Shown piece after piece: positions 6,574 through 60,513 of a stretch of 64,000 bases of DNA. This stretch comes from Nitrospinaceae bacterium (GTDB taxonomy: Bacteria > Nitrospinota_A > UBA7883 > JAJDBK01), in contig JAJDBK010000063.1 of the NCBI GenBank assembly GCA_029261405.1, positions 29,086 through 93,085 on the forward strand, read 5' to 3'. Made by a program: the position numbers and the translations under genes. Each line of letters starts with the position of its first letter. Position 1 is the stretch's first letter. The notes under the pieces were generated by a model, which did no database searches, had not been told where the DNA came from, and saw only the letters and a program-made list of their open reading frames with translations.

Positions 6574-7156
6574 ACGAATCCCTTATAGCCGCCCACAACT
6601 CTTTTTTACCTTCGCCTGAGAGGGAAGAAAAGATGAGCGGTTTCCCTTCCGTCTCCATAACCTCGCCGATAGAGTTCCACACTTTTTTTATCTCCGTGGC
6701 TCTGCGGGTCTTCGGGATTTTGTCTATCTTGGTGAAAACAGGTATGGTGACAATCTTGTGGTGGTATAACCATTCGAACAGGGATAGATCGTCATCGTTC
6801 GGTTTTCGCCTGCAATCGAGGAGCGCCAGTGTGATTTTTTTCCGGCCGGTATCGCCGAGGTAACTCTCCACCATCGCGCCCCAGCTCTTTTGCACATTCC
6901 CCGGTACGTTGGCGAACCCGTAACCGGGAATATCAACGAACGTGTAGACATCGTTGATGTTGAAGAAATTCAGGAGCCTTGTTTTGCCGGGAGTCTTGGA
7001 GACCTTTACAAGCCCGTTACGGCCAGTAAGTTTATTTATCAGGGACGATTTCCCCACGTTCGACCGCCCGGCGAATACAACCTCCGGTACCGTATACTTC
7101 GGATATTGATCCGCCTCTTGCGCCGACTTTATGAATTCAGCCTTATGAACCCGCAT
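6563..7156 (-). CDS. engB: Ribosome biogenesis GTP-binding protein EngB/YsxC (YihA)
   Basis: P-loop GRSNVGKSSLIN; DxPGYG switch; 197 aa. Confidence 0.85.
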   Translation of the reverse strand: MRVHKAEFIKSAQEADQYPKYTVPEVVFAGRSNVGKSSLINKLTGRNGLVKVSKTPGKTRLLNFFNINDVYTFVDIPGYGFANVPGNVQKSWGAMVESYLGDTGRKKITLALLDCRRKPNDDDLSLFEWLYHHKIVTIPVFTKIDKIPKTRRATEIKKVWNSIGEVMETEGKPLIFSSLSGEGKKELWAAIRDSFTP

Positions 7157-7163
7157 CCGATGG

Positions 7164-8432
7164 TTATATCAACTGATTCATCACCAGCCCGGAGATCAGC
7201 TTCGGGTAGAAGTAGGTAGATTTCTGCGGCATGACACCACCACCTGTAGCTACTTTAAAAACCTTGTCGATATCGGTCGGGTTTAACAGAAAACCGAGGG
7301 TTGCGTCACCCTCATCGACACGATTCATCAGGGCTGAAGCGTCGATAGTGTATGCGACACTCTTCTTGCTTGCCACAGCTTCCCGCGAGATCCCCAAAAC
7401 CTTCTCGAAAATAAGATCCTGCAACGTTATAACTTCGATCTGTCCGTTCTCTTCTTTCAACTCCAGCAGTAACGCCCTGTTGTTTCCTGCGTAGAGGCCG
7501 AAACTTTGTCGGCTCTGACCGGCTGTTGCGAGTTTCTCCATGAACTGATCCGGCGCGTCAGAATCGATGGCGTGTTCTGAAATATCGAAATATTCAGACA
7601 GCTTATTTTTTATCTCGTCGATGTTGTCGGTCAGTTTCGATATCACCACCCGGTGAGTGGCCAGAACCGTAAAACCTTCGCCATGAGAGTTGGCGAGGTA
7701 CATCATTGCGTATTTGTAACCGTCCGATTTGTCGCTATTCGTGGCCGAGCTTCGTTCTTTCATGTAATTGATAGCGGTCTCATATCTGTGATGTCCGTCG
7801 GCGATCACCACCGGGATATCCTCCAGAAACTCCTGGGCGGTTTTAATAACATCCGCATCAGTCACGACCCACATCATATGTTTTACGCCATCCTTGTCGG
7901 TAACCTCGATCTCAGCGGGCTCCTCCATAATACCGCTCCAGATAGCGTCGAGTTTCCGTGTCGGATCGGAATAGAGCGTAAAGACCTGGGAGAAGTTTGT
8001 TTCACATGCGCGGGTAAGGTTCAGCCGGTCTGTTTTAGGGCCGGAGAGAGTTCTTTCGTGGGGGTGAATCGACGAACCGAGCGGCTCGACCAGTCGTCTG
8101 CAGATAAATCCGGTGCGGCGCAAGGTTTCACCACCGATATCGAAATCCTGAGCGTAGAGGTAGAGAGCTTCTTTATCGTCCCGCTCAAGCACACCTGTAT
8201 CGAGCCAATTTCTCAAGGTTTCGGCTGATCTGGTGTAACGGTTATCCTCATCGGTGTCGTCGTCGTTTATCTCCCCGAGAATCAGCCGGACCACGTTATA
8301 GTCGCTCTGGTTGTATAGCTCGTTCTGCTCAGCGGGAGAGATGACATCGTAAGGGGGGGCTAACAGGTCTGCGATGTTTCCGGCTTTAGTAACGTTATAT
8401 CTGGTTCCTTTAAAAGGATTTACTCTCGGCAT
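7164..8432 (-). CDS. DUF1015 family protein
   Basis: N-terminus PFKGTRYN...APPYDVIS is the hallmark of DUF1015; 422 aa. Confidence 0.7.
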   Translation of the reverse strand: MPRVNPFKGTRYNVTKAGNIADLLAPPYDVISPAEQNELYNQSDYNVVRLILGEINDDDTDEDNRYTRSAETLRNWLDTGVLERDDKEALYLYAQDFDIGGETLRRTGFICRRLVEPLGSSIHPHERTLSGPKTDRLNLTRACETNFSQVFTLYSDPTRKLDAIWSGIMEEPAEIEVTDKDGVKHMMWVVTDADVIKTAQEFLEDIPVVIADGHHRYETAINYMKERSSATNSDKSDGYKYAMMYLANSHGEGFTVLATHRVVISKLTDNIDEIKNKLSEYFDISEHAIDSDAPDQFMEKLATAGQSRQSFGLYAGNNRALLLELKEENGQIEVITLQDLIFEKVLGISREAVASKKSVAYTIDASALMNRVDEGDATLGFLLNPTDIDKVFKVATGGGVMPQKSTYFYPKLISGLVMNQLI

Positions 8433-8459: not shown

Positions 8460-10424
8460 TCAAGGCTGTACAGTTTCACATTGGAAGCCCCTGGAGTGTA
8501 TATCAGCTCTCACCTTCTCCGCCACCTCTTTTGAGGCGAACGCGCCCACAAGGACGTTCACCTCCCCTTCCGGGTTGGCCCTTACGGTATATGGCGAAAA
8601 CCCCTCTTCAGAGAGTCGGTGCGAAAGTCGATCAGCCGTCTCCCGGTCCATCCTCTCCTCCACCAGGACAGCGTAAGGAAGTTTGAGTATTCGCGTGTAG
8701 TTCAATGTCCCGGACCTTCGTACCGAGCTGGCAAACTCCCCGGCGCCCTCCCGGTCGGAGTATCGGTCGATAACCACCCGGTACCAGTCCCCTTTGCCGG
8801 GAACGAAAGTCAACACCTCAAAAGCGTTGTATCCCTTTAGCTTGAGCAAACGCACCATATTTCTTGCGTGGTTCCCTCTTTTAAACGAGGCGACGTGTAC
8901 GACATATGACTTTGACTCAGGCTCCACCTTTTCCGGCTCAGGCGTTGGTTCCGGTTTCTTCTCTTCCCCGGCAAGAATTGTTACCACTTCGTAAGACCCG
9001 TCACCCGAAGGTTTAAGCGATAACGACATATCCTCTTTCGATCCCCCCTGTTCCGTCTGCGCCGTAGCCTGTACGGATCCATCCCCGCTCTTTTCTATCG
9101 TCACGTTGTCGAGGTCGAGGTCGATGGAGCTTTGTTCACTCCACCTTGAAAGCGCCGACAGAACCGAGTTGCGGAATGGGATAACCCCTGTAGCCACTTT
9201 CCCGGTTGCCGCCACAGTGTCGCCTGTCGCCGGTATCCCCTTTTTGGCGACCCGCATAACGTCTCTTCTTTTCCAGTCACCCCATTGCCGGGCGATTATC
9301 CTTTTCGCTTCCGCTTTGCTCAGTGTCGCCGCTGTTTCATTCACTTTTGTCAGGTTCAACACCGACGACGCTCTTAAGCCGTGCATGTTTCCCTTTATGA
9401 ACTTCGATTTATTGTTCATCCATATGGCAACTACCACCTGATCGTAATCGACTTTTCCGACGCCACCCTCCTTTACAATTCTATAGAGAGAAGCGCCCTC
9501 TTCAACCTTATGGATGGCCGTTTTAATGTCAGCGCCCATGGGTAGATATATCTTTTCATCTGAGGCTTGTTCCACTGGCTCAGGAGTCTTTGGTGTCACA
9601 ACCGGTTCAGCCGCCGCCGCTTCAGCAACCTCTTCTTTTGTGGCGGGTTCAGGCTCTATCGCCTTGACCACGATGATGGTCTCTTTTTTCTCAACCTTTG
9701 CAGGCGCAGGCGGCGCCTTGACGGGGTTCGGGGTGGCTACGGTTGCAGGCTCTTCAGGTTCGATCTTCTTTACAACTATTGAGTCGTTCTTTTCCTGAGG
9801 CGTCACACTCACCTGCTCGGCCGATTCCTCCTCCGCTCTTATCTTTTCCAGAAGAAGACGGTCCTCACCTTTCATCCGCTGGTCTTCTTTCTCATCAAGC
9901 CTGGTCCCCTTTTTCATCGCATCCATGGCCGAGGCGATTCTATCCATCTCCTCCTTTTCAGCAGGGTCGATGTCCAATGAAAGGTTCTTCTGAAAATCGA
10001 CGGCAAGAAAAAAATTCTCCAGGATAACCCCACCGCCAAGTCGGGCTTTTACCAGCAGGTTGAACGAAGGTTTGAAAATGGGACGGTCGCTTATAATATA
10101 GATAATCATCTGTTTGGGCGCCGTGGGGTGTTTCCCGACCCGAACCCTCAAGCCGTCAATGACATCCGACCAGGTGACCCCCAGCTTTTTGTACTCCTCT
10201 TTCGGGGCAAGTGAAACTACCAGATCGGTTTTCCCGTCTGTGCGCACAGGTATTTCCGCCTTGAACTGGCTTTCAAAAGCGCCTGTGACACGTATCTTTC
10301 CCAGAGAGAACGCAGTAGCGTCAGGAGTGGCGCATATTGCGGTGATAAGCAGTGCAAGAATGGTTCCGAAGCTATAGCCGGATCGGCGGTGTGTCATACC
10401 GATAAAATACAAATATTTTGACAA
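8460..10424 (-). CDS. FimV N-terminal-domain/LysM/SPOR domain protein with Pro/Glu-rich linker
   Basis: Signal/TM at N-terminus; FimV-like N-domain; low-complexity PEP/AEE linker; LysM-like segment; two C-terminal SPOR-like domains (YVVHVASFKRGNHARNMVRLLKLKGYNAFEV...). Confidence 0.55.
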   Translation of the reverse strand: MSKYLYFIGMTHRRSGYSFGTILALLITAICATPDATAFSLGKIRVTGAFESQFKAEIPVRTDGKTDLVVSLAPKEEYKKLGVTWSDVIDGLRVRVGKHPTAPKQMIIYIISDRPIFKPSFNLLVKARLGGGVILENFFLAVDFQKNLSLDIDPAEKEEMDRIASAMDAMKKGTRLDEKEDQRMKGEDRLLLEKIRAEEESAEQVSVTPQEKNDSIVVKKIEPEEPATVATPNPVKAPPAPAKVEKKETIIVVKAIEPEPATKEEVAEAAAAEPVVTPKTPEPVEQASDEKIYLPMGADIKTAIHKVEEGASLYRIVKEGGVGKVDYDQVVVAIWMNNKSKFIKGNMHGLRASSVLNLTKVNETAATLSKAEAKRIIARQWGDWKRRDVMRVAKKGIPATGDTVAATGKVATGVIPFRNSVLSALSRWSEQSSIDLDLDNVTIEKSGDGSVQATAQTEQGGSKEDMSLSLKPSGDGSYEVVTILAGEEKKPEPTPEPEKVEPESKSYVVHVASFKRGNHARNMVRLLKLKGYNAFEVLTFVPGKGDWYRVVIDRYSDREGAGEFASSVRRSGTLNYTRILKLPYAVLVEERMDRETADRLSHRLSEEGFSPYTVRANPEGEVNVLVGAFASKEVAEKVRADIHSRGFQCETVQP

Positions 10425-42307: not shown

Positions 42308-43663
42308 ATGTGGATAGATAACATAGCCATCAAGATCGCCCAGGCGATCACTCTGCCGAAAATGAGTGGAGAAGCGCCAAAATCCCCTCTCGCCGATGGC
42401 CAGATCGTCCAGGGGAAAGTCATCAAGCTCCTGCCAAACGCCCAACTGCTTGTGAACGTGGAAGGCCAGAAGATGGTCGCCTCAAGCAAGAGTCCCATGG
42501 CTGAGGGGCAGACTTTTGTGGGGAAACTTCAAAACGTCGGTCAGAAGATGACCATTAATATACTGCCCGGGAAAAATGCGGGAGATATTAAAACGACAGA
42601 AATGTTGCGCGCGCTCCTGCCCGGGAAAGAGCCGATGGGACAGTCCCTCTCCAAGGTTCTCGATCTTCCCCAAAAGGAGGGGTTACCGTCGGCGATCAAA
42701 CAGACCGTCACCGATCTTGCCGGGAATATACAGAAAACCATAGCGGGAAATATCGAAAATAACACCCCTGCGAAAACAAAAAGCGCTATACGGAACTCAG
42801 GTCTTTTTATGGAAGCGACGTTAAAAGAGGCGGTGGTGAAAAATATGGACCGGACAACCGTTGGCAAGATTCTGCAAACCGATGTAAAAGCTATGCTCGG
42901 CACAGCTCTGACAGAGATTACTACAGAGACCGAAAGGGTGGCGAACAGACTCAAAGCCCTCGTTCCTCTGTCAACGTCGGCGGAAAAAGAGATCATGGCC
43001 ACCCAAAGGGAGACAAAATCAACTGTCCCACTGACGACTGAAAGTGGCAAGGAGCCGGTAATAGCGGAGAAAGCGGTCAGGGCTGGCGCCGCAAACAGCG
43101 CCAAAGGCGCGGCGCCACATGGTCAGGCCGCATTAATCGAGTCCACCCTTGCTGACCTTGCTCGAATGCGGGAAGCCGGAAAAAATATTCGGGACGCGAT
43201 CAACAACATAGAGCTTAACCAGGTAATGAACTCAACGGTTGACAGAAAACAGGGGGATGGCGCCCCCCCCTCCTTCTACCAGCTCCCTTTTTTTGAAGGA
43301 AACCTTGTAAATAACGCCAGGGTCTTCATCAATCCGAGGCGGGAAGGAGACGCTTCGTCCGAAGGCAAAGGGTCAGACGAGAGCAGGATGGTCTTCATGC
43401 TAAACATGTCAAAGCTCGGCCCAGTGAGAGTCGATGTCAGGGTGAATAAGGAAAAGGTGACAGGATCGATCTTCGCCGTCAACGATTCCGCCACATCGTA
43501 CATGAAAAATGAACTGCCCAAACTTGTATCCCCCCTTACCTCGGCAGGATACAAGGTATGGTTTGATGTGGCGACAGCCGGGGCCGGATATGTGACCGAA
43601 GAGCTGGAAAACGCCATACCTCTAAGAAACGCTCCCCAAGGGCTGATAAACGTAAAGGCTTAA
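42308..43663 (+). CDS. Flagellar hook-length control protein FliK-like (C-terminal Flg_hook-like domain)
   Basis: C-terminal RMVFMLNMSKLGPVRVDVRVNKEKVTGSIFAVNDSATSYMKNELPKL matches the FliK C-terminal pattern (L.L.P..LG.V.V.....). An N-terminal QGKVIKLLPNAQLLVNVEGQ segment is also FliK-like. Confidence 0.55.
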   Translation: MWIDNIAIKIAQAITLPKMSGEAPKSPLADGQIVQGKVIKLLPNAQLLVNVEGQKMVASSKSPMAEGQTFVGKLQNVGQKMTINILPGKNAGDIKTTEMLRALLPGKEPMGQSLSKVLDLPQKEGLPSAIKQTVTDLAGNIQKTIAGNIENNTPAKTKSAIRNSGLFMEATLKEAVVKNMDRTTVGKILQTDVKAMLGTALTEITTETERVANRLKALVPLSTSAEKEIMATQRETKSTVPLTTESGKEPVIAEKAVRAGAANSAKGAAPHGQAALIESTLADLARMREAGKNIRDAINNIELNQVMNSTVDRKQGDGAPPSFYQLPFFEGNLVNNARVFINPRREGDASSEGKGSDESRMVFMLNMSKLGPVRVDVRVNKEKVTGSIFAVNDSATSYMKNELPKLVSPLTSAGYKVWFDVATAGAGYVTEELENAIPLRNAPQGLINVKA

Positions 43664-43979: not shown

Positions 43980-45365
43980 ATGGAAATCAACGAAAAATCT
44001 ATCGACAACCGCCAGGCTTATGATGAGCTTATAAGGGCGCTTGAGATTGTATCCAAAGGCTTGCCCGCGCCATATTTACCACCTGTAAACGACCCTAAAC
44101 TTAATTCGATCTCACGCCTCGTTACAGAAGTGTCGGAAAAGAACCAAACGGCGTTTGAAAACCTCCGGTCAGTCAACAGGTCCCTTAGAACCGAAAAGGA
44201 ACGGCTCGAAGACAAGGTGGAGATCCTGGAAGGCGAACTCGAACAGGCTGTCGACAGCGCCAAGGTCGGCGAGCGGATGAAAGAAGAGTTCATAGCCAAT
44301 ATCAACCATAAACTACGCACACCTCTAACCTCCATTATAGGCTTTACCTCGCTATTGTTGCAGGACAAGGAAGGTATGATGGACACGAGAAAAATTGCCG
44401 AATATCTTGGCATTGTTCTTCAGGAGGGGGAGCGACTTATGGGAATGGTCGAGACCATGATCAATCTGGCCCGTATCAACTCCGGAGAGTCGCCCCCTGC
44501 GTTCAAACTGTTTGGCCTCAATAAGCGCATCACAACCGAATCCCCGAAATGGAGCAACGACCTTCCAAAGGACGTTGCTCTCTACCTTGATCTGGACGAA
44601 TCTGTTGGCTCCATCGTCGCCGATCCCGGGATGATACTCACGGCGATAGGGATGTTGATCTCTAACGCCTCGGCCTGCTCACCTGCGGGTAGCGTAATAA
44701 CAGTAACCACATGTAATATGGGCGATAATGTGGTCATAGAGGTCATAGATCAGGGGGAGGGGCTTCCGGGGGAGGCTCTCGACTCCATATTCCAGAATTT
44801 CACCCAACACAACAAACCGGATGGAAGTGGAGGTCTGGGCGTCGGGCTATCGCTTGTCCGTTCGATCGCGTGGTTGCACAAAGGGGAAGTCTCCGTCACA
44901 AGTGAAGAGGGAGTGGGGAGCCGGTTCAAGGTAACGATCCCCTACAACCCGGATGCGGCCTATGATGCGCTCACCACAAGCTCCAATATGGAGAGAAGTC
45001 TGGCGTTGGTAGCCGATGACGACATGAACTCCCGACTGCTTCTCAAGGGCATGTTGAAAGAGAAATTCGATATTGTAGAGGCCGCCGACGGTCATGAGGC
45101 CGTAAGGATGTGTGCAAAACATAAACCTGCGATTCTGCTTGCGGACATGGCCATGCCGGAAAAGGACGGGATTGCGACAATCCTGGAGATTCGGTCAAAC
45201 CCTGAAATCTGCGATACTCCCATCCTGGTCCTTTCGGCAAAAACATCGCCGAAAGTGGTCGAAGCGGCTTATAGCGCCGGAGCCAACAGCTATCTTAGCA
45301 AACCGTTCACAAAAGAGGAGTTGCTACGCGACATATATGCAATCCTTGGCGTAAAACAGACGTAG
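43980..45365 (+). CDS. Hybrid sensor histidine kinase/response regulator (cytoplasmic; coiled-coil, HisKA, HATPase, REC)
   Basis: H-box ANINHKLRTPLTSI; HATPase G-boxes; C-terminal receiver with DD...D...K pattern (LVADDDMNS...LLADMAMP...). Confidence 0.8.
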   Translation: MEINEKSIDNRQAYDELIRALEIVSKGLPAPYLPPVNDPKLNSISRLVTEVSEKNQTAFENLRSVNRSLRTEKERLEDKVEILEGELEQAVDSAKVGERMKEEFIANINHKLRTPLTSIIGFTSLLLQDKEGMMDTRKIAEYLGIVLQEGERLMGMVETMINLARINSGESPPAFKLFGLNKRITTESPKWSNDLPKDVALYLDLDESVGSIVADPGMILTAIGMLISNASACSPAGSVITVTTCNMGDNVVIEVIDQGEGLPGEALDSIFQNFTQHNKPDGSGGLGVGLSLVRSIAWLHKGEVSVTSEEGVGSRFKVTIPYNPDAAYDALTTSSNMERSLALVADDDMNSRLLLKGMLKEKFDIVEAADGHEAVRMCAKHKPAILLADMAMPEKDGIATILEIRSNPEICDTPILVLSAKTSPKVVEAAYSAGANSYLSKPFTKEELLRDIYAILGVKQT

Positions 45366-52165: not shown

Positions 52166-52267
52166 CGGGTTTTTAAGTATTACACCTCCTCAATAAATTA
52201 CGGAAATACGATTTCACTGGTTCAATGGTAAATAAACAGGACACACTGTGTCAACTGCCAGAAAAGG

Positions 52268-54625
52268 TTACAGGGAGGATGGCTCCCCTTCTTTTATCAT
52301 CGATTCAAGGATTGTGAGGTTGTTGAGCACGAGTTTGGCGCTCGGATGGTTCTCCCCGTGGCGCTTCCTGTAGATATCGAGGGCGCTGGATGCGCACTCC
52401 CTTGCGCCTTCAAGGTCGCCCTGCGCTTTAAGGACAGAACCGAGATTGTTCAGGCGAACAGCCACCTTGGGATGGTCTTTTCCAAAAACCTTCCGGTCTA
52501 TTTCAAGAGCCCGTCTGTATTCGACTCTGGCGCCGTCAAGATCGCCCTGGGCTTTTAGCACAAAAGCGAGATTATTGAGCCGAATGGCTATCTTCGGATG
52601 TTCCGCACCGTAAACTCCGGTATCTATAGCTAAAGCGCGAGTGTAATTTTTTTTCGCGCCGTCAAGATCCCCCTCCGCCTTAAGTATGGAGCCAAGATTG
52701 TTCAGGCGAATGGCGACTAAAGCGTGGTTCTCCCCATAAACCCTCCTGTCCACCTGCAAGGCGAGTTGGTAATTTTTTTTCGCGCCGTCAAGATCCCCCG
52801 TAGCCTGAAGTGTCAGGCCCAGATTGTTAAGAAGAATAGCAATCAGAGGGCTTTCTTCATTAAACAAGCTGGTGACTATCTTAAGAGCGCGCCTGAAGTA
52901 TATTTCCGCCCCATGGTGATCCCCCTCCGAGAGCAGAAGTGAACCGAGACTGTTAAGACAGTTGGCGACATTTTCATGATCTCGCCCATACTCCGACTCC
53001 GCTACGGCAAGCGCCTTTGTAAGCAGGTGTTTCGCCTCTCCAACCTCTCCGCGTGTCAACATGAAGCGGGCGGCCCGGTTAAAGAGAATCCACGCCTTAT
53101 CGTAAGATACGTTAAGCCGCTTGGCATGGGTCGCCACCGATATTACATGGGGCAATAGAGATGCGTAGATGGGACGGGCTGTGAAATTGTTCTGATTGTA
53201 GGTGAAAACCTTTTCCATCATCAAAACGGCGTTTTTGGCGTATTTGACCCGGCTCTTTTTCATCCAGTCGAGCGTCACTGTCTGCACCATCGGATGCACG
53301 GAAAAACGTCTCTCCTCCTCCGTGGCGCATACATGGATGAGCGCGAGCCGGGTAAGAGGCTCGATGGCCCCGCCGAACCTGCTACCGTCCCTTATGGCCG
53401 CCGCAAGTTTTTTTGGCATAAGGTCCGCGCAGATCGTCAGCATCCACTCCGGAATGTTCTCCGAATGGAAGAATGCAAAGAGGTTCATGATATCGGCGAC
53501 CACATCTGATTCTTTCTGAGCCCGCTTGAAGGAAGTGAGCCAGACGGTTGCGATGGTTTTCCTGAAATCGCCAGGCTCATCGTGTTCCATGATTTTAATC
53601 CAGTTGCCCCGATAAAGCTCCAGGTAGGTGTCAAAACCGGTTCCCTCACAGGAGATGTATACACCAGCAAGCTCCAGCGCCAGAGGTAAGCCGGAAAGCT
53701 CACCCGCGAGTAGCCTTGCGATCTTCTCATCACCCATACGTCCTGTTCTTGCCACCAGATATTCCACAGACTCATCCAGAGTAAGAGGCTCCACCGAGAC
53801 CCGGGTGGCTTTGGTGGCGAAAGCCGGGTTCCTCGAAGTTATGATTACGGCGCCCTTTTCGACCGGTGGGAGGTAACCTGCGAGATCCTCAGGTTTTTCG
53901 GCGTTATCAAAAACCAGCAACCAGTCGCCATGCTCGCTGAGCCATTGCAGGACCGCTCTGGTTATCTCCTTTGACTTAAGCCCTCCAACACCCGCTATTC
54001 CAATCTCTTCGGCAAGCCCCTTGAAACCTTCATCCAACTGCGATTCGGTCTCCGACTCGATCCACCAGATGATCGAATAGTCGCCACTGTTTGCATAGAC
54101 GTACTCTACCGCCAGTCCTGTTTTTCCCATGCCTCCGGCTGGCTGTATCAGAGCCACCCGCTCCCCCTCCGCAAGTTTTGCGGAGAGTTTTTGAATCACG
54201 GTTTTGCGACCAGTGAAAAAGAGATTCCTGGTATGGGGAATGTTGTGGACTGTTTTGGGTAGCGCTTTTACGCCGCCATTGCATAGTTCCTTGAACGCGA
54301 ACGCCTCGGCGGACGATTTCCACTCCATAAGCTGGTTTGCCGTAAGGGTTTTGTCATGATCCACGCATTTTGAGCAGAGCCATACGAAGTTTTCGACATT
54401 CTTATTATCGTTTCCGTCGGGGGAAATCCGGACCGGCGTACCGGCAACCAGTGATTTGTATTTAAAGGTATCGGGGCCGGGTGTATATGAGCGGCAATCG
54501 GGATTGGAACATCTGTAATTTACCCTCTCGGCCAATATTCCCGCATCGACGTCCGAAAGGTTTTCCCTTGTTTCATTCATCATAGGTTTACGACAGATCA
54601 AAATTGAATGTGAAAATTTCCCCAA
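52268..54625 (-). CDS. STAND NTPase: N-terminal Cys-rich HNH-like zinc-finger domain + NB-ARC ATPase + C-terminal TPR repeats (NLR/Avs-like)
   Basis: P-loop GGMGKTGLA; Walker B LLVFDNAE; NB-ARC hallmark GLPLALELAG; seven or more TPR_10/12-type repeats (..NNLG.VL.A.GDL.GA...Y..AL.I...) in the C-terminal 300 aa; N-terminal CSNPDC...ISPDGNDNKNVENFVWLCSKCVDH (CxxxxC...N...LCxxC-H) resembles the HNH second half. Confidence 0.7.
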   Translation of the reverse strand: MGKFSHSILICRKPMMNETRENLSDVDAGILAERVNYRCSNPDCRSYTPGPDTFKYKSLVAGTPVRISPDGNDNKNVENFVWLCSKCVDHDKTLTANQLMEWKSSAEAFAFKELCNGGVKALPKTVHNIPHTRNLFFTGRKTVIQKLSAKLAEGERVALIQPAGGMGKTGLAVEYVYANSGDYSIIWWIESETESQLDEGFKGLAEEIGIAGVGGLKSKEITRAVLQWLSEHGDWLLVFDNAEKPEDLAGYLPPVEKGAVIITSRNPAFATKATRVSVEPLTLDESVEYLVARTGRMGDEKIARLLAGELSGLPLALELAGVYISCEGTGFDTYLELYRGNWIKIMEHDEPGDFRKTIATVWLTSFKRAQKESDVVADIMNLFAFFHSENIPEWMLTICADLMPKKLAAAIRDGSRFGGAIEPLTRLALIHVCATEEERRFSVHPMVQTVTLDWMKKSRVKYAKNAVLMMEKVFTYNQNNFTARPIYASLLPHVISVATHAKRLNVSYDKAWILFNRAARFMLTRGEVGEAKHLLTKALAVAESEYGRDHENVANCLNSLGSLLLSEGDHHGAEIYFRRALKIVTSLFNEESPLIAILLNNLGLTLQATGDLDGAKKNYQLALQVDRRVYGENHALVAIRLNNLGSILKAEGDLDGAKKNYTRALAIDTGVYGAEHPKIAIRLNNLAFVLKAQGDLDGARVEYRRALEIDRKVFGKDHPKVAVRLNNLGSVLKAQGDLEGARECASSALDIYRKRHGENHPSAKLVLNNLTILESMIKEGEPSSL

Positions 54626-54675
54626 CTAAACTTATACCATTGCACAGGCTTATCCGGCAAACAGAATCATATCTA

Positions 54676-57354: not shown

Positions 57355-57515
57355 CAGAAGGCCGTCCCATCGGGGCCACCTGAACAAACGTAATCAGATT
57401 ATCGGATATCCTGGCGTGTGTGACTTTGGGTGCGCCCTAAAGTAAGGACCCTCACCACTCGAAGGCCGCCCCATCGGGGCCGCCTGAACAAACGTAATCA
57501 GATTATCGATTCCTA
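57355..57515. repeat. Tandem direct repeat, 2 copies of ~105 bp, each with a GC-rich hairpin (GGCCGYCCC-ATC-GGGGCCRCC)
   Basis: GAAGGCCGTCCCATCGGGGCCACCTGAACAAACGTAATCAGATTATCGGA at ~57357 is repeated almost exactly at ~57462; lies between the convergent hisI and Panacea genes. Confidence 0.7.
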
Positions 57516-57545
57516 GCGAAGCGACTTTGGCCGTGGCCCAGCCAC

Positions 57546-57986
57546 TTAGAGGTATTCGAGGTAGGCTTTTTTTATTTCTTCTTTTTCCATGGTTTCGTCT
57601 CCGCCACCTTCGGCTTCGACCTTCTCCCGAACCGCTTTCCACGCCTCGTCCATGGCGGCTTCTTCAATCTCGTCGTCGGGCATTCGGGAGTAGTTTTCCC
57701 ACAATCCGTTCAGAAACTCTTCTACTTTGATGGTCAGGAACGGTTTTTTCTTGGCCGGGATGGTCTCCCATACACGTCCATATTTTTGGTATATCTTCCA
57801 AAGTGAAGGAAGGGTGGGGCCGTGGTTCCACGCCTCGAAATCCTCGTCGAAAAGGGCTTCTCCGGTATTGGCGAGCATCCACGCCTGGGCGAAATAGACC
57901 AGCCGCTGAAGCTTTACGTGAGTAACCCCGCCTTCGGAGATGAAAAGAAAATAATCGGCGACATCCTCTGGAGCGACTTTTGCCAT
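57546..57986 (-). CDS. Panacea domain (DUF4065, SocA/GepA-like) protein, putative antitoxin, orphan
   Basis: VADYFL...KLQRLVYFAQAWMLANTGEALFDEDFEAWNHGPTLPSLW matches the DUF4065/Panacea core; no adjacent toxin ORF recognised. Confidence 0.6.
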   Translation of the reverse strand: MAKVAPEDVADYFLFISEGGVTHVKLQRLVYFAQAWMLANTGEALFDEDFEAWNHGPTLPSLWKIYQKYGRVWETIPAKKKPFLTIKVEEFLNGLWENYSRMPDDEIEEAAMDEAWKAVREKVEAEGGGDETMEKEEIKKAYLEYL

Positions 57987-58114
57987 GCTATCCCGTATTA
58001 GATTAATACCGTCATTATATCATCCATTCGGGTAAAAAAACACCTTTCCAGCCGGTTTGCGGGTAACGTATAGTTCTGTTAGAAAAAGAAACCATCAACT
58101 GAAACTGTAATCTG

Positions 58115-58912
58115 ATGTCAAACTTCTCACGGTTTAAAAACAGGCTGTTAGCCAAAGCTCTCACCCGGTTCCCTATCCTCGCCCGTATGATGGCGGCCAA
58201 GGTTAAACCACTCGAGTTTGACACAATACCCTGGGCGCCTTTACGAGGCCCACTCAAAGAAATGAAAGTGGCGCTGATAACCACAGCCGGTGTTCATCTT
58301 GTCGATGATAAACCTTTCGACATGAACGACAAAACAGGTGACCCGACGTTCCGGGTCGTGCCATCCTCCACACCTGCGGAGAACCTCGCAATTACCCACG
58401 ACTACTACAACCATAAAGACGCCGATACGGATATAAACATCGTTTTTCCCATTCACAGACTTGCAGAGTTCGCCAGCGAAGGACGAATCGGGGCCGTGGC
58501 GGAACGGCATTTCGGGTTTATGGGACATATCGAGGAGAACCACCTCGACCAATTCATTAATGAACAGATTCCGGCGGTAACCGCCATGCTGAAAGAAGAT
58601 GGGGTCGATGTAGTCCTCATCACACCTGGATGAGGATTGTGCAATCGGTCCGGTGGACTGATCCAGCGAGTTCTTGAAGCGGAAGGCATAAGTAGTGTCG
58701 GCGTTTCGATTGAACGGAAATTTACGGAAGAGATAAAACCTCCCAGGTCGATCTACTTAAAATGGCCCTATGGACATCCTCTCGGAGAGCCGGGAAACGT
58801 GAAACAACAAAGAGCGGTCATGAACAAAGCCTTTGAACTGCTCGAAACCGCCACCCAGCCCGGAGTCATCGATGATATCCCGTTCAGGTGGAGAAGAGAG
58901 AAATATGACTGA
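58115..58912 (+). CDS. GrdB/PrdB-family (glycine/sarcosine/betaine/D-proline reductase B-like) selenoprotein; in-frame UGA (Sec) at 58631..58633
   Basis: ORFs 58115..58633 and 58637..58912 are in the same frame, separated only by TGA. The junction reads ITPG-U-GLCNRSGG (U-x-x-C redox motif). The N-terminal part has the PrdB/GrdB-like pattern (..PL.E.KVALITTAGVH...FPI.RL.E...EG.IG.....FGFMG). Confidence 0.6.
58644..58662 (+). promoter_or_regulatory. SECIS-like hairpin 10 nt downstream of the in-frame UGA
   Basis: AUCGGUCC-GGU-GGACUGAU: 8 bp stem (one G-U pair) with a G/U-containing apical loop, at the spacing expected for a bacterial SECIS. Confidence 0.45.
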
Positions 58913-58956
58913 CAGGATGTGGTAACATTGGATTTTTTCGAGATTACGCTCAAAAT

Positions 58957-59499
58957 ATGAAACGATTATCGCCTCTTTTGGTCATGCTTGCGCTGGCTCT
59001 GGCTATGACAGCTTGCTCTACCGGCAAGTCGATGGAAAAAACGGCTCCGTCAAAAAGCTCACCACTGCGCCAGGAGGGAAGCCGAAAAGTAAGCTACCAG
59101 ACACACACCCTCATATTTAACGGATCCACAGGGGCGGAAGTAAGCGAACGCGCGTACAGAACCGAAACCTCCATAGCGGTTCGGTCCACTGTGCAAAGCT
59201 ACCGGCTCGAAAACTATGTCAACAACCTTCCCAAACCAGACACGGTAGTCTTGCTGGCTATATCTGGCAAAACCGCAGGGCTGTCGATCCTGGGTCCAGC
59301 CGGTATTCCCCTGGCGGAATACAGCAATGGCAAGGTCGTCGGGAACACTCTCCTGTTCGAACAATCTGGCGAAACCGGCAAACTGAGAATCAGATGGATG
59401 ATGGGAATATCGGGGATGGCAAGCTTCGTGGAAAGCCTTAACCCACGCGGAGAAATCCTCTACTCGGAAATCACCACCTTCACACCCACCTCACACTAA
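58957..59499 (+). CDS. Hypothetical lipoprotein
   Basis: Signal peptide with lipobox AMTAC; 180 aa; no recognisable motif. Confidence 0.45.
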   Translation: MKRLSPLLVMLALALAMTACSTGKSMEKTAPSKSSPLRQEGSRKVSYQTHTLIFNGSTGAEVSERAYRTETSIAVRSTVQSYRLENYVNNLPKPDTVVLLAISGKTAGLSILGPAGIPLAEYSNGKVVGNTLLFEQSGETGKLRIRWMMGISGMASFVESLNPRGEILYSEITTFTPTSH

Positions 59500-59583
59500 G
59501 TAGTGCGACTACAGCGAGTGGCGCGACTACACCGATTATTATTGCGCCAGCCTAACGGGATGCTATAATCCCAGGTTCTGGAT

Positions 59584-59672
<89 letters not shown>

Positions 59673-59916
59673 CACCCTTACGGGTGCTTTGCGCGGGCGC
59701 GTGGTACCCAACCTGGCACAAGCTCCTTGCCACCCAAGTCATAGGGTCGGTATTCTTGATTTTCCGTCAAAGACCGGCAGAGTCGATTTGACCTGCACTT
59801 TTCCTGATGTGGCAATTTGGAACGCACCCCCGTACTGGACTGTTCGGATTACAACTTGATGGTCTGTCTGGAAAAAGATGTGCGTGTGGAGGAGATAGCC
59901 GAAACCCGAACACTTT

Positions 59917-60168
59917 TTAACTATTGTGTGACCAGAACTCTTTCGGATCGATTTCAAACCTTCGTAACAGGGCGGAGAGTGTCCCTTGTCGGACCTCCGT
60001 TTTTGCGCCGTGGTATTTAATGGGGTATATCGGGCCTTTCATTGAACCGGGAGATTCCGGCTTCAAAAGGATTCGCTCGGAACCTTTGCCCCGTTTTTTT
60101 GTGCACTCAACAACTCCGTAAGACTGGAGCCTTGTTAAAAGCTCTTTGTAGCTAAGGGACTTTCCCAA
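59917..60168 (-). CDS. hicA: HicA/YcfA-like toxin (type II TA), degenerate catalytic motif
   Basis: 83 aa; LLTRLQSYGVVECTKKRGKGSERILLKP fits the HicA dsRBD-like pattern, but GSHH is replaced by GSER; 4 nt downstream of the hicB-like gene. Confidence 0.5.
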   Translation of the reverse strand: MGKSLSYKELLTRLQSYGVVECTKKRGKGSERILLKPESPGSMKGPIYPIKYHGAKTEVRQGTLSALLRRFEIDPKEFWSHNS

Positions 60169-60171
60169 AGC

Positions 60172-60513
60172 TTAAACTACAGTGCAGGTGTTTGTAATAA
60201 CTTCCGATGGCACGAACACTTTTGGACCATTTTCTTGTGAGGACCGGCTTCCAATACGAAGAATTTCAGATGTGGTCCTCTCCGGGCATTCATAAAATTG
60301 CTTCCAAACTTCGGTGGGCGCTGATCGGTACAAATTATCGAGGTTATTGTTGCTGAACGCGAAATCGATCTGCGTGATAATCAATTCCCTGATGTCATCC
60401 ATGACACCTGTCTGAGTGTCAGACTCCGCCACTATGTCTAACTCAAGACAGTGGGCTACGAACGTATCACCGTCACGTTTAATGAAAATATTAAAAACCA
60501 TGGAGTTATCCAT
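60172..60513 (-). CDS. hicB: HicB-like antitoxin (UPF0150 family)
   Basis: MVFNIFIKRDGDTFVAHCLELDIVAESDTQTGVMDDIRELIITQI matches the HicB N-terminal RNase-H-like fold pattern. Confidence 0.55.
   Translation of the reverse strand: MDNSMVFNIFIKRDGDTFVAHCLELDIVAESDTQTGVMDDIRELIITQIDFAFSNNNLDNLYRSAPTEVWKQFYECPERTTSEILRIGSRSSQENGPKVFVPSEVITNTCTVV

Follow-up and report, generated by a model that had tools for sequence, protein, structure and literature searches.

Bacterial NLR-like proteins are usually read as a sensor, a switch and a killing domain joined in a single chain. A gene on the minus strand of a 64,000-nucleotide stretch of contig JAJDBK010000063.1, from a Nitrospinaceae bacterium (assembly GCA_029261405.1; hereafter the window), encodes a protein of this layout, with an N-terminal module, an NB-ARC STAND ATPase and an array of TPR repeats. 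This three-part layout had been recognised in an initial annotation made from the sequence alone, and our analysis agrees with it; the question raised by the locus is whether the N-terminal module can still act as a killing domain. We found that the module belongs to a known clade of HNH defence nucleases and has lost its catalytic histidine together with neighbouring residues. Our reading of this, held with slightly better than even confidence and drawn from sequence comparison, is that the protein is an NLR-like switch carrying a disarmed suicide nuclease; on this view a defence gene has probably been disarmed or put to another use.

Pfam, which the initial annotation had suggested as a check on the N-terminus, returned no family at E <= 10 for the N-terminal 120-126 residues, and with the same region neither phmmer against PDB nor a word-indexed homologue search gave a match. 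The relationship to HNH domains came instead from phmmer run exhaustively against 1.84 billion representative proteins, which yielded 1097 homologues at E <= 1e-3. These share an N-terminal domain of about 115 residues with the consensus RDDFS..LAKRVGYRCSNPDCR..TSGP...NIGVAAHITAASPGGPRYD....ER.S..NGIWLC..CAKLID.D..RYT...L..WK..AE, which is carried by NACHT, NB-ARC-TPR and TPR-only proteins and by many short proteins (median length 266 aa; 118 of 143 are of 400 aa or less). In PADLOC, ten canonical members were matched to models of the CBASS 'Endonuclease effector'/SAVED_HNH (that is, Cap5), of PDC-M68A and of SduA, and two of the ten also have weak matches to Pfam HNH_2. A hidden Markov model (HMM) of the family, built without the query protein, matches its first 105 residues with E 2e-22. 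When the family profile was compared with PDB, the HNH-APAZ effector of SPARHA (9om4) was matched with E 2e-18 and the Cap5 structures 7rwk, 7rwm, 8ysq, 8fm1 and 9dif with E 1e-10 to 1e-6. The best-ranked non-self phmmer matches (P0121, P0122, P0123, P0127 and P0130) were set aside as repeat or compositional matches outside the HNH family; they are proteins of 1126-4407 aa in which short stretches of 25-62 residues match the query (positions 35-109) 7-18 times each.

Structure prediction gave the same answer. An AlphaFold (AF2) model of residues 1-125 (predicted local distance difference test, pLDDT, 80) has helices at 11-20, 71-76 and 82-102 and strands at 49-52 and 66-69, so that the domain comprises a beta-beta-alpha core in shortened form and a Cys4 zinc site, with a helix on the N-terminal side and a long one on the C-terminal side. 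In a fold search with this model the top 35 PDB matches were all Cap5 chains, followed by the HNH domains of McrA and Cas9. The head is thus a member of the Cap5/SPARHA clade of HNH defence nucleases, and the HNH-like character that the initial annotation had assigned to the module from a partial motif was borne out. Much of the domain is retained: C25, C30, C70 and C73, all in invariant or near-invariant columns, form the predicted zinc site; Asn65 occupies the place of the structural Asn in HNH motifs, where 142 of 143 proteins have Asn; and D75, D77, the N-terminal helix and the C-terminal WK..AE helix are also present. The N-terminal helix is the HNH dimerisation helix in SPARHA and Cap5 (PMC12738770).

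The catalytic centre has fared differently. The column of the catalytic histidine is His in 143 of 143 aligned homologues and Arg52 in this protein, in agreement with the initial annotation, which had noted the absence of the usual first catalytic His, and the two Ala that precede this position are Pro and Val. Arg52 is the equivalent of PsCap5 His56, AcaSPARHA His46 (alignment offsets) and MllaSPARHA H53. The loss extends beyond this one residue, and to that extent the proposal of an HNH-like effector holds for its homology and falls short for its state of preservation: 16 well-occupied family columns are deleted. They comprise TAA, directly behind the first beta-strand, which ends in the His, PRYD-PSLTP from the hairpin, AKL from the helix that follows the second Cys pair, and an additional Ala. 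Thirteen of these residues are missing from the beta-hairpin and three from the metal-binding helix. With AKL, the position that corresponds to AcaSPARHA His80 and PsCap5 His91 has been lost; D75 and D77 of the ID.D motif are still in place. Among the HNH columns conserved at 90% or more, the query keeps 26 of 35 (74%), against 98% in a typical member and a minimum of 91%, and the columns that it has lost cluster at the active site.

The functions of these residues are known from relatives. In PsCap5, His56 is the general base and His91 and Asp95 hold Mg2+, and the H56A substitution was used to stop DNA cleavage in crystals (PMC12141522). In SPARHA, H53A abolished the nuclease activity of the MllaSPARHA protein, and nuclease activity was also abolished by N71A/H80A (PMC12738770). 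We think that the head cannot cut DNA by the mechanism of its family, and would not count it as a functioning nuclease effector.

The remainder of the protein is well preserved. The motifs cited in the initial annotation (GGMGKTG, LLVFDNAE and GLPLALELAG, as well as the two Cys pairs) were all recovered, and IITSR, with the sensor-1 Arg, is found at residues 247-251 and is conserved in alignment A2. Pfam NB-ARC matches with 29.8 bits (cutoff 23.5), DUF7779 is also matched, and the NCBIfam model NF040586 ('FxSxx-COOH system TPR protein') matches with 363 bits (cutoff 300, E 4e-108) over residues 119-483 and the repeats, its profile positions 3-373 lying on the NB-ARC module. These motif and domain matches are far beyond chance. 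A PDB search with the single sequence of the NB-ARC core gave no match and a profile was needed; with it AfsR was the best match (E 1.5e-16), followed by Roq1, NRC1-4, ZAR1 and Apaf-1. The AF2 model of residues 118-485 has pLDDT 90, and Foldseek matched it best to ADP-bound Apaf-1 (E 1e-13, TM 0.65), and also to resting NRC2, CED-4 and ZAR1. Repeat units occupy residues ~492-771 (Pfam TPR_12, E 2e-63; TPR_10 in six stretches), and the C-terminal array of at least seven TPR repeats that had been reported earlier was recovered as six full units and a truncated seventh. Conserved NB-ARC columns are retained at 39 of 46 positions (85%), the changes being mostly conservative, and TPR columns conserved at 90% or more in relatives are retained at 16 of 16 (100%). 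The NB-ARC/winged-helix/TPR STAND module is intact; its fold is like that of Apaf-1 and plant NLRs, and its sequence like that of AfsR. Judged by its conserved residues, the erosion is local: the predicted nuclease centre is lost and the conserved residues of NB-ARC and TPR are kept.

The initial annotation had placed the protein among candidate Avs-type proteins, and Avs (AVAST) proteins do have the same logic of effector, STAND NTPase and repeat sensor. That assignment did not hold. PF05729, the NACHT family of Pfam, has no match in the protein at E <= 1; a PADLOC scan of the protein gave no Avs match at E <= 1, and only TPR, PDC-S39 and a weak Cas3fv match; and Avs structures are absent from the PDB profile matches and from the top 50 fold matches of the core. 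Since the matches include AfsR, NLRs and Apaf-1 and neither a model nor a structure of Avs or NACHT, we assign the switch to the NB-ARC/AP-ATPase clade, not to Avs or bNACHT.

Relatives of the core were collected by a search of 5.8 billion protein clusters, which found 253, and the statements that follow concern the best 120 of these. They are 30-41% identical at best and all align only from ~119 to 771. About 75 of 119 carry a TIR_2 head; others have nucleoside phosphorylase (PNP), kinase, trypsin protease, CHAT, metallophosphatase or SARP heads, which is the variable-effector pattern of bacterial NLR-like proteins. These proteins (P0002-P0120), mostly of TIR-NB-ARC-TPR layout and often given the NF040586 name by automatic annotation, share with the query the NB-ARC, DUF7779 and TPR_10/12 core and the motifs FTGR, GGxGKT, LLVFDNA, TSR, LPLALE and VHxLVQ, and differ from it in their variable heads of ~170 aa. 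The HNH family described above was found among the heads of none of these 119 nearest core relatives, and a close NB-ARC core in none of the 143 HNH-family proteins; therefore the combination of this HNH head with this NB-ARC core is unique in what was sampled. The query core forms a long branch, with 33-40% identity to sequences whose mean alignment column identity is 58%, and no orthologue of more than 41% identity was present in the databases searched.

Several known systems resemble the protein in part. Cap5 (the HNH-SAVED protein of CBASS) and the HNH-APAZ protein of SPARHA have a homologous HNH domain and share with the query the N-terminal helix, the zinc site, the Asn and the C-terminal helix; there the nuclease is under the control of SAVED or of a short Argonaute, whereas the head studied here is joined to a STAND ATPase, and they keep the catalytic His (H56 in PsCap5, H53 in MllaSPARHA) where the query has Arg52 and a shortened hairpin and helix. 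The same HNH family stands N-terminal to a STAND ATPase and repeat sensors in HNH-NACHT proteins (P0125, P0137) and in an HNH-NB-ARC-TPR protein (P0140), whose HNH domains are canonical; their ATPases are NACHT or AfsR-like NB-ARC and are not close to that of the query, with BLAST matches in the TPR regions only. HNH-STAND fusions have been listed as DNase effectors of bacterial NLR-related proteins (PMC12738770; Kibby et al. preprint). AfsR, the SARP-NB-ARC-TPR activator of Streptomyces, is the solved structure that best matches the core and likewise has NB-ARC followed by TPR, but its head is a SARP winged-helix/BTAD DNA-binding domain that is not present here. The protein is thus of the known effector-NB-ARC-TPR NLR-like type with a Cap5/SPARHA-type HNH head, here catalytically degenerate.

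The open reading frame (ORF) is uninterrupted from 54625 to 52268, as the initial annotation had stated; its length of 785 aa, which assumes the TTG at 54625 as start, is less well supported. The TTG start would add 14 residues without counterpart in homologues. The first ATG, at 54583, gives 771 aa and a product 100% identical to the only database copy, P0001, for which an exact look-up found no contig on record; the N-termini of the family align from residue ~3 ('M..RDDFS' against 'MMNETRENLS' in this protein). Since P0001 has 771 aa and the N-termini of the family begin there, the ATG is the likely start codon. A Logan assembly of SRR15505517, possibly from the same sample as the contig of the window, agrees with it at 99.98% identity over 4626 bp and has the same N-terminus, which makes it unlikely that the unusual N-terminal sequence is an assembly error. 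GC content, GC content at third codon positions (GC3) and codon usage are equal to those of the adjoining genes; thus there is no compositional sign of recent transfer. Counts from a promoter and terminator scan were not above those in shuffled sequence. The spacers that flank the gene (52166-52267 and 54584-54675) both have sigma-70-like elements, TTGACA-18-TACCAT preceding the M16 gene and TTTGCC...TATAAG preceding the STAND gene. The features of the gene are collected in Table 1.

Table 1. Positions of the STAND gene and of the domains and motifs that it encodes, in coordinates of the window
Feature	Position	Strand	Residues and basis
Complete STAND gene	52268..54583	-	771 codons + stop; ATG start 54583
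Degenerate Cap5/SPARHA-clade HNH (His-Me finger) domain	54269..54583	-	Residues 1-105; phmmer, family HMM, profile, AF2 fold
First Cys pair CSNPDC (C25, C30), predicted structural zinc site	54494..54511	-	Family-invariant columns
Codon CGG = Arg52, at general-base His position	54428..54430	-	Family alignment column
Second Cys pair CSKC (C70, C73)	54365..54376	-	Family alignments; VDHD follows here, C-AKL-ID.D in family
NB-ARC module (nucleotide-binding + helical + winged helix/DUF7779)	53129..54232	-	Residues 118-485; Pfam, NF040586, AF2 model
Walker A / P-loop GGMGKT	54119..54136	-	Residues 150-155; G and K invariant in alignment A2
Walker B LLVFDNAE	53897..53920	-	Residues 222-229; W-L-L..D-N invariant in alignment A2
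GLPLALELAG, helical-domain motif	53663..53692	-	Residues 298-307; LPLALE invariant in alignment A2
VHPMVQ, winged-helix His430 = MHD equivalent of plant NLRs	53282..53299	-	Residues 429-434; invariant His (core H313) in A2
TPR sensor array	52271..53128	-	Residues 486-771; six full 42-residue TPR_10/TPR_12 units + truncated seventh

The genes that flank the STAND gene are housekeeping genes: tgt, hemW (assigned by TIGR00539 with 281 bits, cutoff 205), two M16 peptidase genes, two CNNM/CBS transporter genes and MqnC. The initial annotation had described such a setting, with M16, hemW and tgt and without adjoining mobile-element genes, and its description proved correct. Synteny was obtained through homologues of TGT, which is 68-73% identical to proteins of Nitrospinae/Nitrospinota metagenome-assembled genomes (MAGs) and of a hydrothermal-vent metagenome. 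A scan of genome contigs with HemW found only relatives of 31-39% identity from other phyla, and metagenomes searched with the M16 peptidase gave relatives of at most 48% identity, in which only the M16 pair was syntenic; a STAND gene was near none of 17 related M16 loci. One Nitrospinota-like contig (L087, GCA_900491345.1) has hisI ... tgt-hemW-M16-M16-CNNM-CNNM-MqnC, with hemW separated from the first M16 gene by 90 bp and without a STAND gene between them. Because hemW and M16 are adjacent there, the STAND gene is a single-gene indel, either inserted here or lost from the relative. In five further relatives, also Nitrospinota, tgt-hemW is retained and the genes downstream differ; the hemW/M16 junction is variable. 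When the 90-bp spacer of L087 was aligned to both junctions in a search for an insertion scar, the only exact match was of 10 nt, a length reached in 14 of 500 shuffles, and no target-site duplication was found at either junction of the STAND gene. The spacers that flank the gene share the short strings AAGCCTGTGC and GTTGACAC with the hemW-M16 spacer of L087, a similarity that is not significant.

Beyond MqnC the window has a FliK-like gene for flagellar hook length (42308-43663) and, at 43980-45365, a gene for a hybrid histidine kinase/response regulator, and L087 has the flagellar genes Flg_hook and Bac_export_2 just beyond MqnC. Given flagellar genes past MqnC in both, synteny therefore reaches at least there. 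In one of the five further relatives, a Nitrospinae MAG (L094, GCA_016235255.1), an RHH/ParE toxin-antitoxin pair lies between tgt and hemW (6887-7430) and a Phd/ParE pair lies shortly after hemW (9566-10130); in this lineage, small accessory cassettes seem to accumulate around tgt-hemW. In the window itself, hisI and a GGDEF gene enclose a short accessory stretch (57394-60513), whereas in L087 the genes between hisI and tgt are LptD and a Glu_synthase gene. This stretch contains an ORF with a SocA/Panacea antitoxin domain (57546-57986, minus strand) with an 89-aa unannotated ORF directly upstream (58015-58284, minus strand), a tRNA-Ser(GCT) gene (59584-59672, plus strand), and a weak HicA-toxin-like ORF (59917-60168, minus strand; 22 bits, below the Pfam cutoff) that adjoins an ORF of 113 aa without matches (60172-60513, minus strand). 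It also contains an ORF of 172 aa (58115-58633, plus strand) that is matched only by the glycine/sarcosine/betaine reductase selenoprotein B family, in its C-terminal portion (positions 210-345 out of 347); this may be a truncated gene or one interrupted by an in-frame UGA selenocysteine codon.

How the protein would work can be proposed from its relatives. In Cap5 and SPARHA systems the HNH domain is active when oligomerised and shreds DNA, leading to abortive infection. We infer that the TPR array would bind a trigger, after which the NB-ARC ATPase would exchange its nucleotide and oligomerise; oligomerisation would gather the N-terminal output domains, and in members of the family the HNH heads would then cut DNA. 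In this protein, which keeps the zinc-site residues and the HNH dimerisation helices but has lost the nuclease centre, sensing and assembly would persist and the DNA-cutting step would fail. The gene may survive as a relic that does not kill; alternatively, some residual output may be left to it, through DNA binding or scaffolding. A defence role would follow from the relatives only, and signalling or regulatory repurposing, or a disarmed relic, would fit at least as well.

Some of our results weigh against a disarmed nuclease. D75, D77 and Asn65 remain, with H76 between the two Asp, and an unconventional catalytic arrangement is possible. If such an arrangement works, the protein would be an abortive-infection NLR in which a phage protein is sensed, TPR and NB-ARC drive oligomerisation and the HNH-like head cuts DNA through a non-canonical site. 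Its layout is that of HNH-STAND defence proteins (PMC12738770; Kibby et al. preprint), its ORF and ATPase are intact, and the zinc site, the dimerisation helix, Asn65 and both Asp are kept. We nevertheless rate a working nuclease as quite improbable, for the reason that an invariant His has become Arg52; mutation of that same His blocked cleavage by PsCap5 (PMC12141522) and abolished MllaSPARHA activity (PMC12738770), the beta-hairpin and metal-binding helix are both shortened, and no PADLOC defence model matched, the generic TPR one excepted. A further objection concerns the word relic. The intact ORF of 771 codons, the neighbour-like composition and the kept ATPase and TPR motifs argue for continued selection; the label 'relic' may then be mistaken, and the protein may have acquired a new non-catalytic function. 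The want of an orthologue argues, for its part, against a conserved role. That a suicide nuclease has become a non-catalytic head kept by selection, whether as a trigger-gated DNA-binding or regulatory switch or as a sensor NLR that activates an HNH helper in trans, is a proposal that we consider rather unlikely.

The two forms of such a head can be weighed separately. A ligand- and ATP-dependent DNA-binding regulator like AfsR or MalT, with the dead HNH fold as its DNA-binding head, would accord with AfsR being the closest PDB sequence match of the core, with the long-term selection that composition, ATPase and TPR suggest, with the co-directional orientation of the STAND gene and the adjoining housekeeping genes, and with Cap5 tetramers, in which HNH domains in an inactive conformation contribute DNA binding only (PMC12141522). 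It is unlikely all the same: Cap5-type HNH touches DNA phosphates only and has no sequence specificity (PMC12141522), the protein has no recognised DNA-binding domain (SARP/BTAD or LuxR helix-turn-helix), the one BTAD match in Pfam having E 0.13 and lying inside the TPR region, and the syntenic relative lacks the gene, no STAND gene lies near the related M16 loci and there are no orthologues, so nothing conserved would be regulated. Were the protein instead a 'sensor' NLR, its dead head would hetero-oligomerise with, and activate, a competent HNH protein encoded elsewhere, much like the paired sensor and helper NLRs of plants or the effector-associated adaptor domains known from bacterial conflict systems. 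The family consists mostly of short HNH proteins, the HNH domains of Cap5 and SPARHA form dimers of dimers in which only some subunits are catalytic (PMC12141522, PMC12738770), and the N-terminal dimerisation helix is conserved in the query; yet the family HMM found no second HNH of this family within the window, and there is no adjoining partner, both flanks being housekeeping genes that are present also in the relative without the STAND gene. We regard this arrangement, too, as quite improbable. The name of NF040586, an equivalog model whose curated cutoff is exceeded, would make the protein the TPR component of an FxSxx-COOH peptide-maturation system, akin to those for ribosomally synthesised and post-translationally modified peptides (RiPPs). 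We give this next to no credence: there is no plausible precursor ending in FxSxx in the window (three stop-to-stop ORFs with the pattern were judged to be chance), just two radical-SAM proteins with CxxxCxxC are encoded in the 64 kb, assigned to HemW and MqnC by equivalog models, with no SPASM maturase, and relatives of the same name carry TIR or other death-effector heads and occur in unrelated phyla. The name has thus been applied to NLR-like proteins without Fxs partners nearby.

The disarmed suicide nuclease remains the reading that we favour. In this protein the presumed killing domain is eroded at its catalytic centre, the sensor and the switch are intact, and the composition is like that of the neighbouring genes. 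If the gene is a relic, it would be a record of how costly abortive-infection genes are disarmed and not deleted, and it cautions that domain architecture alone may overcount active defence genes. If it is functional, an immune STAND protein would have been repurposed to a non-lethal output, and a non-catalytic head kept by selection would be a prokaryotic parallel to the effector-dead sensor NLRs of plants, which act with helpers.

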